The translations under genes and the position numbers were made by a program. Shown here piece by piece: positions 24,574 through 46,030 of a DNA stretch of 64,000 bases (the stretch's first letter is position 1; every line of letters begins with the position of its first letter). Source of the stretch: an uncultured Acidobacteriota bacterium (GTDB lineage: Bacteria; Acidobacteriota; Thermoanaerobaculia; UBA5066; DATFVB01); contig CAWEYG010000005.1 in the NCBI GenBank assembly GCA_963813155.1, positions 160,001 to 224,000 of the forward strand, in the 5' to 3' direction. The notes beneath the pieces were generated by a model. It worked only from the letters and a program-made list of their open reading frames with translations, did not search any database and had not been told where the DNA came from.

Positions 24574-26556
24574 TTATGGCAGCCTTCCCGAGACCGGAAC
24601 TGCGTTCGGAGGCTTGACAGGGGAGATGGGGCGATCGACGTGGATGTCCGAGAGCGCCAACCGCTGGACTCCGTTGCCAAGGAAAAAAGCATAGAGCGAG
24701 TCCCCGGTGGCCTGCAGCCCGAGCGGGTAATCGCTCAGGATCCCGCCCAGAAGCGCCTGCCAGTTGCCGCCAGAGAGCGGCTTCGCGAACACGCTGCTGC
24801 CGAGGCCGGGCCCGAGTCCGAAGAGGAAATGATCACTCGACGCCTCCACCGCTCCAACCTCGGCCGCCGCAGATGCCGTCGGGCGCCAGGTCTGTCCGAG
24901 GTCATCGGTCTGAAGCAGGCCTCCGCCAGTCGCGACATAGAGCATTCCACCCACGCCATAGACCTTCCAGGCGCCGCTGTCCGGCTGGAGAACCGCTGAC
25001 CACGAGGCGCCGCCGTCGGTCGATCGGAAGACCGAGTAGTTGTCGGCGACGAAAAGCGCGTTGGCGACGACTGCGATCGCACACGTGGAGCTGGCCGGGA
25101 CCGCGACGGTCACCCAGTCGGCGGGACCGGACTTTCGATAGAGGCGCGGGCTTCCGCCGAAGGTGCCTGCATAAACGACCCCGTCCCCGGAATAGAGAGC
25201 GCAGATCTCGGGATAGGGTCGCTCGATTCCGGAACTGAAGGCGGCCCAGGTGGCGCCCTGGTCGGTGCTTCGAAAGATCCCGTCCGTCTGAGTTCCCAGG
25301 AGGAGCGACCCATCCGGATGATGCAACAGGGAAGCAGGCGAGTCGCCCGGTGTTGGGAAACCTGCCCAGGTCGAGCCGCGATCGTGGCTCGCGAAAAAAT
25401 TTCTTCCGAGATATCCGTAGACCGAGTCTCCTTCGGCAACCGCCGGGCTGAGAGTCCCGATCGGTCCTGAGTTGCTGGGTTCCCAATTCAAGCCGCCGTC
25501 CTCCGTCGCGAAGACCCCCGCGTAGATGCTGCCTGCCAGAAATCGGTCTCCGACCGAGAGAAAGGCGTTGGGAGCGTCAAGACGCAGGCCAGAGGGAGTC
25601 GCCGGAGGAGCCGGCGACCAGTTCGCCCCGCCGTTCACGGTGGAATACAGCCGCGTACAGGGAGGATCCGGGCAAGGTCCTCCGTAACCGGTCACCTCGA
25701 AGAAGGTATTTCCTGAGCCGTAGACAACTTGAGCCTCCCGGTCTGGAACCGTGGGAATAGGGGACCATGAATGACCTCGATCGAGGCTCCGGTAGAAACC
25801 GCCGGGCGTGCGCGCATACAGGGCATCCGTCCAGAGGAGCGAAAAAACGTACTGGCCCGTCAGGCCCGCGGGCTGGAAAGTTACGCCGCCGTCGTCGGAG
25901 CGCACCACTCCATTGTCGGTTCCTGCGAAGAGGGCTCCGTTGGCCCAGAGCAGGGAGTAGGGGATCCCCAGATCGGCTGGTTGTCGTGCCCATGTCGCTC
26001 CCCGGTCGGTCGACCGGTAGACGCCGCTCGTGTCTCCGCAAGGACCCGTCGGGCAGCCCGGTGGCGGAGTCGCCACCCAAATCGTCGTCGGCGAAGCGGC
26101 GACTGCGTTGATCTCGGAACTCGGGCCCTGAGACTTCGTCCACGTCGAGGAGCCGTCGAAGCTCGCGTAGAGAGTTCCAAAGACATCGGCGAAGACGACG
26201 GTGTCGCCCGAGGCAGCGAGGAGCGGCCCGGCGTAGTTCTCGGAGGGAATCTGGCCTCGCGACACTGGTGTCCATGTCCGTGCTCCATCGGTGCTTTTGA
26301 AGACGCCGGCCTCCAACAGATAGACGTAAACGGCGTTCCCCGAAGCTGCAAAGGCCATAGCGTCCCCGCCGGGTGGACTCAGAGGCGGGCCCCAGGTTTG
26401 GCCAGACGTGGCGACCGTCACGAGCAGGAAGACCGCGAGGAGACAGCAGCGAGTCGTCCTCGATGGCACCGCCGGAAATGCTGAACGGGGAGCAGCCTTC
26501 TGGGAATTGCCGAGGAGAGCAGGGATCAAACGGTCTCGTGATCGATACGGGCTCAC
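24574..26556 (-). CDS. Secreted BNR/VPS10-type beta-propeller repeat protein
   Basis: More than ten Asp-box repeats (S/TxDxGxxW). Hydrophobic signal-like segment lies ~35 aa in, so the true start is uncertain. Confidence 0.8.
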   Translation of the reverse strand: MSPYRSRDRLIPALLGNSQKAAPRSAFPAVPSRTTRCCLLAVFLLVTVATSGQTWGPPLSPPGGDAMAFAASGNAVYVYLLEAGVFKSTDGARTWTPVSRGQIPSENYAGPLLAASGDTVVFADVFGTLYASFDGSSTWTKSQGPSSEINAVAASPTTIWVATPPPGCPTGPCGDTSGVYRSTDRGATWARQPADLGIPYSLLWANGALFAGTDNGVVRSDDGGVTFQPAGLTGQYVFSLLWTDALYARTPGGFYRSLDRGHSWSPIPTVPDREAQVVYGSGNTFFEVTGYGGPCPDPPCTRLYSTVNGGANWSPAPPATPSGLRLDAPNAFLSVGDRFLAGSIYAGVFATEDGGLNWEPSNSGPIGTLSPAVAEGDSVYGYLGRNFFASHDRGSTWAGFPTPGDSPASLLHHPDGSLLLGTQTDGIFRSTDQGATWAAFSSGIERPYPEICALYSGDGVVYAGTFGGSPRLYRKSGPADWVTVAVPASSTCAIAVVANALFVADNYSVFRSTDGGASWSAVLQPDSGAWKVYGVGGMLYVATGGGLLQTDDLGQTWRPTASAAAEVGAVEASSDHFLFGLGPGLGSSVFAKPLSGGNWQALLGGILSDYPLGLQATGDSLYAFFLGNGVQRLALSDIHVDRPISPVKPPNAVPVSGRLP

Positions 26557-26605: not shown

Positions 26606-26711
26606 TTGGGAGCAGGAGGTCCCCGGTTCGCATTCAGGAAGACCCCCAGAGAAAGTTCCCGCCCTGAATTGCAAGCCTCGACGCAGGCGAGGTGAAGCGC
26701 AATCCGGGCGC
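26606..26711 (+). repeat. tRNA-Pro 3'-half copy 1, split in the T-loop by a 71-nt insert
   Basis: TTGGGAGCAGGAGGTCCCCGGTTC matches the tRNA, then insert 26630-26700, then AATCCGGGCGC matches the tRNA again. Confidence 0.9.
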
Positions 26712-26729
26712 ATGCCATAATCGCGATCA

Positions 26730-26806
26730 CGGGGCGTAGCGCAGTCCGGTAGCGCTCCTGCTTTGGGAGCAGGAGGTCCCCGGTTCAAATCCGGGCGCCC
26801 CGACCA
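26730..26806 (+). tRNA. tRNA-Pro (TGG)
   Basis: 77-nt cloverleaf CGGGGCG...CGCCCCG-ACCA; anticodon arm CCTGC-TTTGGGA-GCAGG; T-arm GGTTCAAATCC; TGcCATAAT extended -10 just upstream. Confidence 0.97.
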
Positions 26807-26941
26807 ACCTTTTCTTTCGTTTAGCCTCGCGTAGCGCGAGGACCATTTCTGACGAGTTCAAAAATGAGTTCAGAGCGTCTCGATTTCAAATCGCTTTCGG
26901 GAGCACAGCGTTCTTAGCGAAGACGGAGACGTGCCGCTGAG

Positions 26942-28063
26942 TTACCGCTCCCGGGCACGCATTATCGATACGACACGAGCTGGCACGACGGGAGAGATGC
27001 ACCTACGTGACGGAGGGCAGCCCAGATCGATTACGAAAACACCGGCGTTCGTCGCGGCGAGCAGACGCCTATCGGCGGCATCAATAGTCAGTTGAACGTA
27101 TTTAAGATCCACGGGCATGCCGCCCTCGAAGAGAGACCACGTCTTCGCGCCGTCCTCGCTGCGAAGGATATGCATAACGTCCGTGGCTGGATCAAAGCTC
27201 ACCGCGTACATGACGCCCGTGCGAGCAGGATCAGCGAGCAGAGAGATCATCCGTAGGGTGCCGAACCCATTGCTCAAGGGAACCCGGTTTGCGGATGTCG
27301 TGTCGGTCCGCCACACGGCGTCGGGCGTTACGGCGTAGAGACCGGTGGAATCCCAATCGCTCTCGCACAGCGAAGAGATCCCATGAAGCGGGCCGGTCGA
27401 TGAATTGTTGAAGAGATGCCACGTCGTTCCCCCATCGATGCTTCGGGACATGTCGGTTCCTCCCGCATAGACAATTGCGGGATCACTTCGATCAACAAGA
27501 ATGGCCTGCAGATAGAAGTCCGTTAAGGGAAGTTCCTTCCACGAACTCATACCTAGCGTGAACTTAAAAGTCCCATCGCAAGGCGGAGGAGTAAGGTGGA
27601 AAGATGCCACCGCCGTTCCGATGTAAATATGGCCGGGAGGCGTCGAGTCGAGCGCAAAAGCATTATTGGGGAAGCATGGAAGGGTCCCGCTGATATCAGT
27701 CCACTGGAATCCGCCATCGGTGCTCAGAAACACGGCGTCGCCGCTGACGGCGACGACAAGCGAAGGGTTGACGGAGCTTACGGTTAGGGAAAAGACCCCT
27801 TCGAAGAACTCGATGCCGTTATCAGACTCCAACCAGGTTAACCCCGAATCGGAGCTTTTGTAGATATGTTCCGACGAGGTATTCCGTACCGAAGCGTAGA
27901 GAACTGTCGGGTTGGAAGGATCGAGGGCAATCGCATCAACGTAGCTACCTTCGAATGCTAGGCTCCTCCACTGGTTGGCGGCGGAAAATGCCACGCGACC
28001 ATCTCCCAAGAATCCGAGTAAGCCGAGAGAAAGCGCGACCACACCTCTCTTCAGCTTCATCAT
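26942..28063 (-). CDS. Secreted BNR/VPS10-type beta-propeller protein
   Basis: Signal peptide (MMKLKRGVVALSL..), Asp-box repeats (SSDSGLTW, STDGGFQW, SIDGGTTW, SEDGAKTW); codon usage atypical for the window. Confidence 0.8.
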   Translation of the reverse strand: MMKLKRGVVALSLGLLGFLGDGRVAFSAANQWRSLAFEGSYVDAIALDPSNPTVLYASVRNTSSEHIYKSSDSGLTWLESDNGIEFFEGVFSLTVSSVNPSLVVAVSGDAVFLSTDGGFQWTDISGTLPCFPNNAFALDSTPPGHIYIGTAVASFHLTPPPCDGTFKFTLGMSSWKELPLTDFYLQAILVDRSDPAIVYAGGTDMSRSIDGGTTWHLFNNSSTGPLHGISSLCESDWDSTGLYAVTPDAVWRTDTTSANRVPLSNGFGTLRMISLLADPARTGVMYAVSFDPATDVMHILRSEDGAKTWSLFEGGMPVDLKYVQLTIDAADRRLLAATNAGVFVIDLGCPPSRRCISPVVPARVVSIMRARER

Positions 28064-28171
28064 CAGACCTTCTGTACGGACCAGAAGGCGCGGCTGTTTG
28101 CCTTGCTGGATTCCCATGCTGGAATTGCTGAAGATAGAAGAGTTCAAAATCGAGTCCTAGGTGGGGGAATG

Positions 28172-28321
28172 TGCTTTGGGAGCAGGAGGTCCCCGGTTCG
28201 CATTCAGGAAGACCCCCAGAGAAATCCCGCCCTGAATTGCAAGCCTCGCCGCAGGCGAGGTGAAGCGCAATCCGGGCGCCCCGACCAACCTTACTTACCG
28301 CTTTAGCCTCGTGCGCGAGGA
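28172..28321 (+). repeat. tRNA-Pro 3'-half copy 2, split in the T-loop by a 69-nt insert, with CCA end and downstream flank
   Basis: TGCTTTGGGAGCAGGAGGTCCCCGGTTC, insert 28200-28268, AATCCGGGCGCCCCGACCA (to 28287). The next ~35 nt resemble the tRNA trailer (ACCTT...TTTAGCCTCG..GCGCGAGGA). Confidence 0.9.
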
Positions 28322-28397
28322 ACACTTGCGGCTGTTCCTGTGTTTGAGTTGACGACATGAGATGGCTGCCCCTCAAGCTCCGTACAAACATCAGCGC

Positions 28398-30473
28398 ATG
28401 AAATTTTTGAGACGATTGTCTTGCCTTTGGATCGCCTGTTTGATCTTACCCACGACCCTTCAGGCCGGGCGGGGACACTGGACCGGGAACGGCCCTTTCG
28501 GTGCCTGGATCACCGCAATTGCGGCGACAACGGACGGCCAGGTCATTTACGCGGGTACCGATCTCGGCGAAGTCTTTCGGAGCTCGGATGGCGGAGCGCA
28601 GTGGGATGCCGCAGATCCTAGCCTTTACGCCTATTCGTACCAAAAAATTACTTCGATCGCCATCGAGCCCGGAAACTCTTCCACGGTCTTCGTCGCTGCC
28701 GACGGGCGCGGTATCTTCAAGAGCACCGATGCAGGGAACTCCTGGATTCAGGTGAACAGCGGCTTCACTTCGCCGCCGTCGCTCTGCAGCGATATTGGGG
28801 CCTGCTCGCCGAACGTTCTTGCTGTTGATCCGTCCAACGGCAATACGGTTCTGGCGGGCACCGATAACGGCCTGTTTCGGACGACGGATGGAGGTGAGAG
28901 CTGGTCGCTTCTCGAGCCGGACGGCTACCCAAGCGACGTCGTCCAGACAATCGTTTATGACCCGGCTGACACGAACACTATCTACGTGGGCGAGTCGCTC
29001 GGGCTCTACAAGACAACCGACGGAGGAGAGACCTGGTCGGCGCAGGACGGAGGGCTGATCGAGCCCAGCGTCACAAGCCTCGCCATCGATCCTGCTGATC
29101 CCTCGGTTCTTTGGGCCGTCGATGAAGTTCGAGGTGCGTTTCGGATCAACGGAGGCGGCGCCACTTGGACCCCGATTCCGGCGCCGCTCGGTACTCGAAG
29201 GATTCTGGTCGATCCGGCGACTCCCTCGACGCTCTACGGGTTTGGCCCAAACGGTATTTTCCGCAGTGTAAACGCCGGAAATTCCTGGCGCTCGGCTGGG
29301 TACACGGCATCACCTCCCGATTCCTTCCAGGTGGTCCTCTTTGCCGGATCGCCCCCGACGCTTTTGGCGGGCACCGCGTCAGGATTCCTCGAGAGCTCGG
29401 ACCAGGGGACGACGTGGCAGGGCAGGAACCAGGGCATCAGGGAGGTGTCGGTCTCCTCGATCGCCGTCGGGCCAATCGCTCAGCCATCGATCTTTGCGGC
29501 GGTCTCCACGGGCTCCCTGGAAACGATGGGCGCCGGTTGGATCGCCGGCAGCCCCGTCAATGCGAACGACTGGTCGGCGTTGTCCGGTACGGTTGACGGT
29601 CTTGCAACGTCGGTTGTGATCGACCCAGTTAGCCCGATGAACGTCTATGCCGTCGTGGGTCTCAATTTTCTCAGGAGCACCGATGGCGGCCGGACTTGGG
29701 AGCTGATTTCCAACGGCAACTTCTCTTTCGGCTGGCTAGCCGTTGGGCCGACCAACCCGGTGACGATCTACAGCGCCATCAGGGTTGCCACGCGTATTGA
29801 CCCAATCGTCCGCTCGACCGACGGAGGGAACACATGGGTTAGTCTCAACTTTCCTTTCGACAACAGTCGCGGTCCTTTACTGCCGGCTGTCAATAGTGGG
29901 GTCGTCGTCGACCCGAACCGCGCCGGCAGGGTCTATGTTGCCGGAGACTTCGGCATTGCGCGAACGACCGACGACGGTGGAACCTGGGTGAAGTTGAGCA
30001 ACGGATACCCGAATGCTTCAGCGCTGGCGATCGCCATCGATCCGAAGCAGACCTTGACGCTGTACGCAGGGACTCTCATTGGTGTTTTCAAAACCGTCGA
30101 TGGCGGTGATCATTGGGTGAAGGTCAACGGAAATTCCCAACTAATCTTTGTCCAATCGCTCGCGGTAGATCCTGCGGACTCGCGCATTGTTTATGCAGGG
30201 ACGCAGACGGGAATCCAGGTCAGCCGCGACGGAGGAGACACATGGTCGGACCTGAGTTTGGGTCTCCCGCACCCGACGATGGTTTTCAGCCTTGCGGTCG
30301 ATCCGGCCGGCGAACGTGTTTTTGCAGGGACCGACCGCGGCGTCTACGAGTTCACGATGTCGCCGGATCTTAGCCCTGTTCCTTCTCCCGTTATTCAATC
30401 CATTCCGGGTCACTGGCGGGCGAGCGCTACCATCCATGGGCCGCGAAGACAATCCACGGAAAAACCGCGATAG
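28398..30473 (+). CDS. Secreted BNR/VPS10-type beta-propeller repeat protein
   Basis: Signal peptide MKFLRRLSCLWIACLIL..; many Asp-box and 'LAIDPxxP..YAGT' repeats. Confidence 0.85.
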   Translation: MKFLRRLSCLWIACLILPTTLQAGRGHWTGNGPFGAWITAIAATTDGQVIYAGTDLGEVFRSSDGGAQWDAADPSLYAYSYQKITSIAIEPGNSSTVFVAADGRGIFKSTDAGNSWIQVNSGFTSPPSLCSDIGACSPNVLAVDPSNGNTVLAGTDNGLFRTTDGGESWSLLEPDGYPSDVVQTIVYDPADTNTIYVGESLGLYKTTDGGETWSAQDGGLIEPSVTSLAIDPADPSVLWAVDEVRGAFRINGGGATWTPIPAPLGTRRILVDPATPSTLYGFGPNGIFRSVNAGNSWRSAGYTASPPDSFQVVLFAGSPPTLLAGTASGFLESSDQGTTWQGRNQGIREVSVSSIAVGPIAQPSIFAAVSTGSLETMGAGWIAGSPVNANDWSALSGTVDGLATSVVIDPVSPMNVYAVVGLNFLRSTDGGRTWELISNGNFSFGWLAVGPTNPVTIYSAIRVATRIDPIVRSTDGGNTWVSLNFPFDNSRGPLLPAVNSGVVVDPNRAGRVYVAGDFGIARTTDDGGTWVKLSNGYPNASALAIAIDPKQTLTLYAGTLIGVFKTVDGGDHWVKVNGNSQLIFVQSLAVDPADSRIVYAGTQTGIQVSRDGGDTWSDLSLGLPHPTMVFSLAVDPAGERVFAGTDRGVYEFTMSPDLSPVPSPVIQSIPGHWRASATIHGPRRQSTEKPR

Positions 30474-45561: not shown

Positions 45562-45692
45562 GCCGAGGCCGACGATGAGTTCAGGCACCCCTGCGGCGCA
45601 CGGTGGCATCTCCTGATCGCTGCTTCCTTCCGGACCTGACGAGGTTCGGAGACTTCCGTCGCACAGGACCCGAACTCATCCTCGGCCCCGGC
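45562..45692 (-). ncRNA. ffs: Signal recognition particle RNA
   Basis: Minus strand holds the domain IV core TCAGGTCCGGAAGGAAGCAGC inside a long hairpin; classic position upstream of dnaX. Ends approximate. Confidence 0.92.
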
Positions 45693-45940: not shown

Positions 45941-46030
45941 TGGCGGAGAGTCAGGGATTCGAACCCTGGGTACGGTTTCCCGCACACACGCTTTCCAAGC
46001 GTGCTCCTTAAGCCACTCGGACAACTCTCC
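45941..46030 (-). tRNA. tRNA-Ser (GGA)
   Basis: 90-nt GGAGAGT...CTCTCCGCCA; anticodon arm CACGC-TTGGAAA-GCGTG; long variable arm; GGTTCGAATCC. Confidence 0.97.

Follow-up and report, generated by a model that had tools for sequence, protein, structure and literature searches.

Two copies of a short hairpin-forming insert interrupt tRNA sequence in the genome of an uncultured Acidobacteriota bacterium, and the locus raises the question of whether such an insert is an intron, a mobile element or a passively carried piece of repeat DNA. We analysed a 64,000-nt stretch of this genome (the window; the assembly is G000). The original prediction had placed a double-hairpin element in a tRNA T-loop, and both copies lie where it put them, at 26630-26700 (71 nt) and 28200-28268 (69 nt), flanked by GGTTC and AATCC. 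As it also described, the only differences between them are an indel of 2 nt in the hairpin A loop and a single base change in hairpin B, and both hairpins fold. Chance is excluded, since the first 19 nt of the insert occur twice in the window against 0.03 occurrences expected; these two are the only full copies in the whole of G000. Folding of the insert beats that of shuffled sequences only modestly (copy 1: z −0.78, 40 of 200 shuffles equally good; copy 2: z −2.37, 2 of 200). We read it as, most likely, a repeat-like insertion at the DNA level that sits in spare tRNA copies, rather than as an intron of a new kind.

Although the T-loop position was correct, neither host proved to be a tRNA gene: both are fragments of tRNA-Pro(UGG). 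ARAGORN and Rfam identified a single tRNA-Pro(UGG) in the window, at 26730-26806, and this gene is uninterrupted. The host of copy 1 comprises tRNA positions 33-56 and 58-68 (24 and 11 nt shared with the intact gene), and that of copy 2 positions 29-56 and 58-76 (28 and 24 nt shared). Copy 1 is a stub upstream of the intact gene, and copy 2 the displaced 3' end of a small island without integrase (Table 1). The T-loop of the intact gene reads TTCAAAT, so A57 is the base that the insert has replaced. Removing the insert while keeping its first G does give the predicted canonical loop, but not the TTCAAAT loop of the intact gene. A promoter scan returned no site in the spacer 26712-26729. Elsewhere in G000, ARAGORN called a second 'tRNA-Pro(tgg)' without CCA (C5:15370-15444, outside the window), which resembles a decayed copy of a tRNA-Arg(TCG) located 3.8 kb away. 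An SRP RNA adjoining tRNA-Ser(GGA) in the window (45576-45675 and 45941-46030, minus strand) is ordinary.

Table 1. Features of the tRNA-Pro(UGG) locus, in window coordinates
Feature	Position	Strand	Basis or remark
BNR/sortilin-repeat gene, 660 aa, upstream	24574..26556	-	Missing between DUF2911 and the tRNA in G002
tRNA-Pro(UGG) fragment, positions 33-56, 5' side of copy 1 stub	26606..26629	+	24 nt identical to intact gene
Insert copy 1, 71 nt, in place of A57	26630..26700	+	Sequence comparison
Unit A: AT-bounded palindrome, 7-bp stem, variable loop	26632..26669	+	Two homologues side by side in G003
Unit B: AT-bounded REP-like hairpin, 5-bp outer stem and inner hairpin	26668..26703	+	
tRNA positions 58-68	26701..26711	+	Final 5 nt also match the upstream sequence in insert-free G001
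Spacer, likely extended -10 box (26713-26721) of intact tRNA	26712..26729	+	Inferred from conservation among relatives
Intact tRNA-Pro(UGG), sole canonical one of the assembly	26730..26806	+	ARAGORN/Rfam
Island arm: hairpin 26824-26841 and tandem GAGTTCAAA-type repeat 26854-26871	26807..26871	+	
Mini-island cargo ORF, 401 aa	26942..28147	-	Weak Sortilin-Vps10 match below cut-off
Opposite island arm, second GAGTTCAAA-type repeat at 28140-28157	28140..28171	+	
tRNA-Pro fragment, positions 29-56, displaced 3' island end, attR-like	28172..28199	+	
Insert copy 2, 69 nt; unit A 28202-28237, unit B 28236-28271	28200..28268	+	
tRNA positions 58-76 including CCA	28269..28287	+	
Older island arm remnant, hairpin 28306-28320	28288..28320	+	Similar to 26807-26841
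BNR/sortilin-repeat gene, 703 aa, downstream of copy 2	28362..30473	+	

The insert is built from two palindromes of 36-38 nt each (units A and B), which have AT at both ends and overlap by one AT. The terminal AAT of unit B is common to insert and T-loop: the outer 5-bp stem of hairpin B recruits this AAT, which sets the natural right-hand boundary at 26703 and 28271. In copy 1, unit B shares 2 nt with unit A and 3 nt with the T-loop. Across four related sequences, stem pairs were retained in 96.7% of cells. A check with a covariance model, proposed in the original prediction, gave no covariation in excess of shuffles for these four sequences (one double change; 145 of 500 shuffles as high).

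The insert is not a one-off copied by local duplication, since the same T-loop site is filled in three genomes of two genera. There are two copies in G000 and one in its closest, congeneric relative G002, which together make up the copies of genus g1, and one locus in G003 of a sister genus. In G002, whose layout comes from two contigs joined through their overlap, the order is promoter, tRNA positions 1-56, insert and positions 58-68, then a diverged second copy of the upstream region and finally the intact gene. This insert occupies the same site and is identical to that of G000 at 68 of 71 positions, which exceeds the 79-86% identity of neighbouring genes between the two genomes and which we count in favour of transfer. 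On the 5' side of its insert the G002 stub has the T-stem allele of G000 and G001, and on the 3' side it has its own. This suggests that the insert may have been imported with a short 5' conversion tract, although the marker is one base and a point mutation could mimic it. G001 shares the upstream gene and the spacer but has neither stub nor insert, and G004, G005 and G006 are likewise insert-free at the tRNA-Pro locus. In G003, the host is a tRNA-Pro of full length that has decayed. It is split at the same site by 124 nt, which likewise start with G; A57 is missing here too, and the same island arm follows. This host differs from the intact G004 gene by eight exon substitutions, including breaks in the acceptor and anticodon stems. 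In its insert, unit A has two homologues in tandem (27/36 and 25/36 identical, ungapped), after which comes a hairpin collinear with B; none of 20000 shuffles reached 27 matches. The gene content between DUF2911 and the tRNA varies between G000, G001, G002 and G004, and in G006 (C1:971805) the tRNA-Pro is inverted relative to the DUF2911/dehydrogenase block when compared with G000.

Metagenome contigs carried a fragment with the insert in all four runs read, from four studies (20 holder runs are listed); these contigs are of low depth and one run is possibly the source sample. The copies differ at 1-5 letters, and the listed variants fall in the loop of A, apart from the private base of copy 1. 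Such confinement would fit stem selection as well as recent transfer. Run X2 showed the copy-2 layout, X3 and one X1 contig continued from the insert into the intact gene, and the match of pieces from X1 and X5 ended at tRNA position 68.

A search for the insert at other sites yielded the homologues in G002 and G003, but these are all at tRNA-Pro(UGG), and no other tRNA or non-tRNA site was found. Beyond the three holder genomes, there was no copy in 175 genomes of the order (BLAST and pattern) and none among 401 genomes of the class; the unpublished genomes G008 and G310 were used for tallies alone. With a covariance model (R1) run on 150 genomes, only the four training copies scored above 30 bits, and none of the next-best 27 loci, all of which were read, lies in a T-loop. 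R1 scores 26-36 bits on repeat loci, matches that are circular because these loci had been chosen by similarity. A metagenome scan with a hairpin-A pattern gave at least 118 loci, and BLAST of the insert against 226 collected loci produced full-length matches in the G000 and G002 loci only. Five viral scans (6, 43, 3, 2 and 22 loci) contained no real copy; a species-wide genome scan returned 12 loci, one of them real (L243, a Thermoanaerobaculia record that adds no new locus) and 11 due to chance. Plasmids and phages gave no meaningful match for either insert (H41 was read and judged chance). Searching with 53 tRNA calls of G000 revealed no other split T-loop. In the literature within our coverage, outside which most subscription papers fall, no paper on palindromes inserted into T-loops of bacterial tRNAs was found.

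Could the insert nevertheless be removed from RNA, as the original prediction had allowed? A tiny intron of this kind is extremely improbable. In its favour, ARAGORN calls a tRNA-Pro at lowered threshold, in addition to the canonical T-arm obtained when the first G is kept. The site itself is not unprecedented, as group I introns occupy the tmRNA T-loop (PMC11915505, accessible part). Like these, the insert interrupts a T-loop, but it differs from them and from the introns of tRNA anticodon loops in having no catalytic core, the wrong boundaries, far too short a length and dead hosts (compared with the accessible text of PMC11915505 and 10.1101/2020.01.27.920355). No register brings together U(-1), G as the last base and a loop of 7 nt, the rules given in those texts, and at 69-124 nt the inserts compare with about 293 nt for group I introns of the tmRNA T-loop (PMC11915505, same part). 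Rfam had no match to the insert. The splicing endonuclease PF01974 was found in 0/5 genomes (4 of 14 controls match, these being archaeal), and each of the four genomic hosts is either decayed or missing its 5' half or CCA end. Joined 56/58 junctions were absent from the metagenome DNA contigs. Overall, splicing of the insert is unlikely.

The two-unit anatomy instead recalls known palindromic repeats. CGTC-tagged REPs are short palindromes with an AT opening and an AAT-C close that occur in arrays (Di Nocera et al. 2013, PMC3733652), and NTS/Ssn-related motifs are paired with SsnA GIY-YIG nucleases (Chenal et al. 2025, PMC11893778), as described in the accessible parts of these papers. The AT opening and AAT-C close are present in unit B of all three genus-g1 copies and in unit 2 of G003. 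Repeats in six of the 401 genomes searched, all six from family f11, match unit B at 84-88% over 31-38 nt, with marginal per-genome E-values of 1.4e-4 to 6e-4 across the 401 genomes. These repeats have the form GTC-ATTGCGAG...CGAAGCAATC, and their two inner-stem differences from unit B are complementary. The same repeat family has seven units in G000 under a strict pattern, and related repeats flank small GIY-YIG ORFs in relatives (L328, L318, L321; G216, G438 and G006, the last from the same family as G000), which is the layout that the two papers give for the REP and Ssn motifs (available text). The CGTC/TGTC tag is absent 5' of unit B, where the end of unit A stands instead, and unit A carries at most a partial tag. 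An HMM of 25 repeat units did not find unit B; a covariance model of 16 units gave it 10.5 bits (E 1.6 in the window, model positions 4-36 only), with 12/16 invariant columns kept. A search for a tagged, dispersed unit A matched in 9/301 genomes, with no repeat family among the matches. As the tag is missing, the HMM misses the unit, E is 1.6 and no tagged unit A turned up, we describe the insert as built like a CGTC REP doublet and do not call it a member. Unlike those repeats, it is untagged, its units are fused at a shared AT without spacer, and it is not dispersed, being confined to one tRNA T-loop with at most two copies per genome. There is no small GIY-YIG gene at the insert loci and none that is small in G000, whose only GIY-YIG match sits in a 727-aa frame. 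T-loop insertions were not found in the accessible text of the CGTC REP and Ssn papers (PMC3733652, PMC11893778), and the Ssn paper has no occurrence of 'trna'. A pattern for a tagged repeat directly after a T-arm matched in 47/401 genomes with chance-like strings, and the only real tagged repeat among those matches (G034) is not in a tRNA. Rickettsia palindromic elements in tmRNA and RNase P RNA genes are likewise palindromes inside structured RNA genes, but measure 105-146 nt in hosts thought functional (PMC2229807, accessible part), whereas those described here measure 69-124 nt in dead host copies.

In the same family of bacteria, small GIY-YIG ORFs follow a hairpin doublet at L329:1273-1740, L339, L337, L340, L341 and L330 (G001, G003, G004), directly 3' of the CCA of tRNA-Ala(GGC), tRNA-Ala(CGC), two displaced Ala ends, a duplicated tRNA-Ser end and tmRNA. 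Similar hairpins stand behind tRNA-Gln, two tRNA-Ala and an Arg fragment in G000, without such a GIY-YIG gene. This looks like a repeat-plus-nuclease element that targets tRNA 3' ends and is distinct from the T-loop insert.

We consider it probable, if not by a wide measure, that the insert consists of fused, protein-less REP-type palindromes that are lodged, at the DNA level, in the T-loops of spare tRNA-Pro(UGG) copies and are passively carried, exchanged by recombination and left unspliced. This reading builds on what was observed: the position in the T-loop, the division into two units, a homologue from a second genus, and hosts that are truncated or decayed. A REP-like doublet may have entered the T-loop at TTCR|AATCC, which resembles the AATC end of such repeats, the entry point perhaps being set by microhomology between the T-loop AATCC and the repeat end. 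Insertion would kill the host gene, and the insert would then survive only where a second copy supplies the tRNA, be it a tandem duplicate or an island-displaced fragment. tRNA-Pro(UGG) is required for CCA codons by the decoding rules; as it is also single-copy, only insertions in duplicates or displaced fragments would persist. In both G000 and G002 the hosts are fragments beside an intact gene. No intact tRNA-Pro(UGG) was found in the G003 assembly (97% complete, 370 contigs), so that it is decay that marks its copy as spare. From then on the insert would have been a passive passenger, passed along when the tRNA sequence beside it underwent homologous recombination or gene conversion, probably both within the local pair of copies and across related species.

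The setting of copy 2 is that of a tRNA island. GC content is 0.57-0.64 across 23-31 kb of the window, compared with mostly 0.65-0.70 in the surroundings. A GAGTTCAAA-type tandem repeat lies directly 3' of the intact tRNA and directly 5' of copy 2, and a strict pattern for it has only those two matches in G000. The arm 26807..26871 is common to islands at tRNA-Pro and tRNA-Ala across the family, where matching arms follow these genes throughout; in G004 such arms bound a 9-kb island at tRNA-Ala(GGC) with a tyrosine integrase ORF. These matches make 26807-28171 a mini-island, whose displaced tRNA end is copy 2: the host is a displaced 3' tRNA fragment, as expected of an attR, with arm repeats at both island ends. 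No integrase is present in 26807-28171, and the four PF00589 matches of G000 are all on other contigs. Like the displaced attR fragments of tRNA islands (PMC4383910; 10.1101/2022.07.05.498093; accessible parts), copy 2 is a 3' fragment ending arm-bounded cargo, but here the fragment is split by an insert, the island lacks an integrase and copy 1 lies upstream of the gene.

Passive carriage has to be weighed against active movement. The original prediction of a non-autonomous mini-element aimed at the T-loop agrees with the same site being used in two genera, but not with the restriction to tRNA-Pro(UGG), nor with our finding neither a mobilising enzyme for the insert nor a clean empty/filled pair. 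An active non-autonomous element homing to the tRNA T-loop, served in trans by a small GIY-YIG (Ssn-like) nuclease or another enzyme, is unlikely. Repair from the donor would copy the hairpins and a few flanking bases, and survivors would hold a duplicated intact tRNA. Such homing could account for the shared site, for the one-sided flanking marker in G002 with its high cross-species identity, and for the small GIY-YIG ORFs that in the family flank related repeats or lie directly 3' of tRNA/tmRNA ends. Against it, every copy is at one tRNA species, base-by-base reading of ten GIY-YIG loci found none of them inside a split T-loop, and the sole GIY-YIG match of G000 is part of a 727-aa frame. 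SsnA, moreover, cuts incoming single-stranded DNA and lowers integration, and mobilisation of repeats is not reported in the accessible text (PMC11893778); the patterns for tagged repeats after a T-arm gave no tRNA case among the matches viewed (401 genomes, viral contigs). We regard as doubtful the bolder idea of a REP-derived, protein-less element that homes to a T-loop mimicking its repeat end, spreads by short-tract conversion into spare copies and locks island cargo. That the insert is kept by selection, locking the cargo island (copy 2) and serving as a structured leader of the intact tRNA (copy 1), is quite improbable. Excision across the 28-nt direct repeat 5' of the insert would rebuild the sole canonical tRNA-Pro(UGG) with a broken T-loop, leaving the island locked, and stems are nearly invariant across copies and runs. 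However, G001, G004, G005 and G006 do without the insert at the locus, the G003 copy is decaying, the pair counts given above stay within shuffles, and the lock is possibly just a side effect of geometry.

Two further origins draw on recombination and transposition. Unit A could be the scar of an aberrant event in an integrase family that uses both tRNA-Ala and tRNA-Pro, made of permuted halves of the tRNA-Ala(GGC) anticodon arm with the REP hairpin added beside it, which is improbable. The first 10 nt of the insert equal this arm in G003-G005 and 9 nt do so in G000, and islands whose arms are the same are found at tRNA-Ala(GGC), their core beginning in that loop, with a tyrosine integrase ORF in one of them. 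Yet the 9-mer occurs 25 times in G000, so that a single match in a tRNA has an estimated chance of roughly 2%; the unit A loop is conserved between genera but unlike tRNA-Ala, and neither junction keeps the 7-nt loop that crossover by a tyrosine recombinase should leave. Insertion of a miniature IS91-family (rolling-circle) element on the 3' side of the T-loop GTTC is very improbable. A purine pentamer 6-7 nt inside both inserts presumably recalls ori ends, GTTC precedes all copies (though every T-loop has GTTC), and one of 30 Y2-transposase loci (L461) shows a similar junction in the expected orientation. GTTC is a known target of the family, which makes no target duplication (10.1101/2025.01.24.634351, accessible part). 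On the other side, the far end has no ter-type tetranucleotide and one base was lost, Y2_Tnp is found in 0/6 family genomes compared with 41/201 class genomes, and neither insert is significantly similar to the 30 Y2-transposase loci. The shared AT unit ends could represent a 2-nt target-site duplication, but the loop left after removal differs from the intact one at two bases. Y1_Tnp was present in 0/2 genus-g1 and 3/3 g2 genomes, and IS110 in 3/5. Terminal inverted repeats shared with a transposase-bearing IS, as in a TIR-type MITE, did not turn up: there was no longer parent in G000, the order, plasmids or phages.

What the locus can tell about repeat movement depends on the reading. In the accessible text, no dedicated transposase was found for copying of CGTC-type REPs (PMC3733652), and the Ssn work found a nuclease partner and not mobilisation (PMC11893778). 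Because the interrupted sequence is a tRNA, the empty site and the junctions are defined exactly and a flanking marker is at hand, which makes the locus a rare testable case of REP movement. If the homing reading held, it would offer a handle on the movement of CGTC repeats, and an insert in the displaced fragment of the island would make excision lethal and lock the cargo; a scar inherited only passively would be a curiosity of one family. The arrangement also suggests a simple route by which integrase-less islands become irreversible, and split tRNA fragments of this type run the risk of being misread as introns.

Several further features of the islands and the assembly were noted. Islands with GAGTTCAAA-type arms use tRNA-Pro(UGG) and tRNA-Ala(GGC/CGC) (L267, L282, L285, L287, L262, L308); cargo ranges from the single gene at 26807-28171 to GmrSD, methylase and ResIII genes in the G004 island. 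Additional displaced tRNA fragments mark islands in G000 at C2:371298, C3:187442, C3:177156, C1:858600 and C10:8295, and derive from Ala, Gly (twice) and Arg, plus a 5' fragment of Leu. Between 23687 and 30473, three BNR/sortilin-like ORFs and a 291-aa ORF without Pfam match lie on both sides of the tRNA. The 16-mer counts of G000 are dominated by other repeat families, at about 35-45 copies each. A tmRNA stands in near-identical context on each of contigs C7, C8 and C19, which suggests strain duplicates within the assembly.
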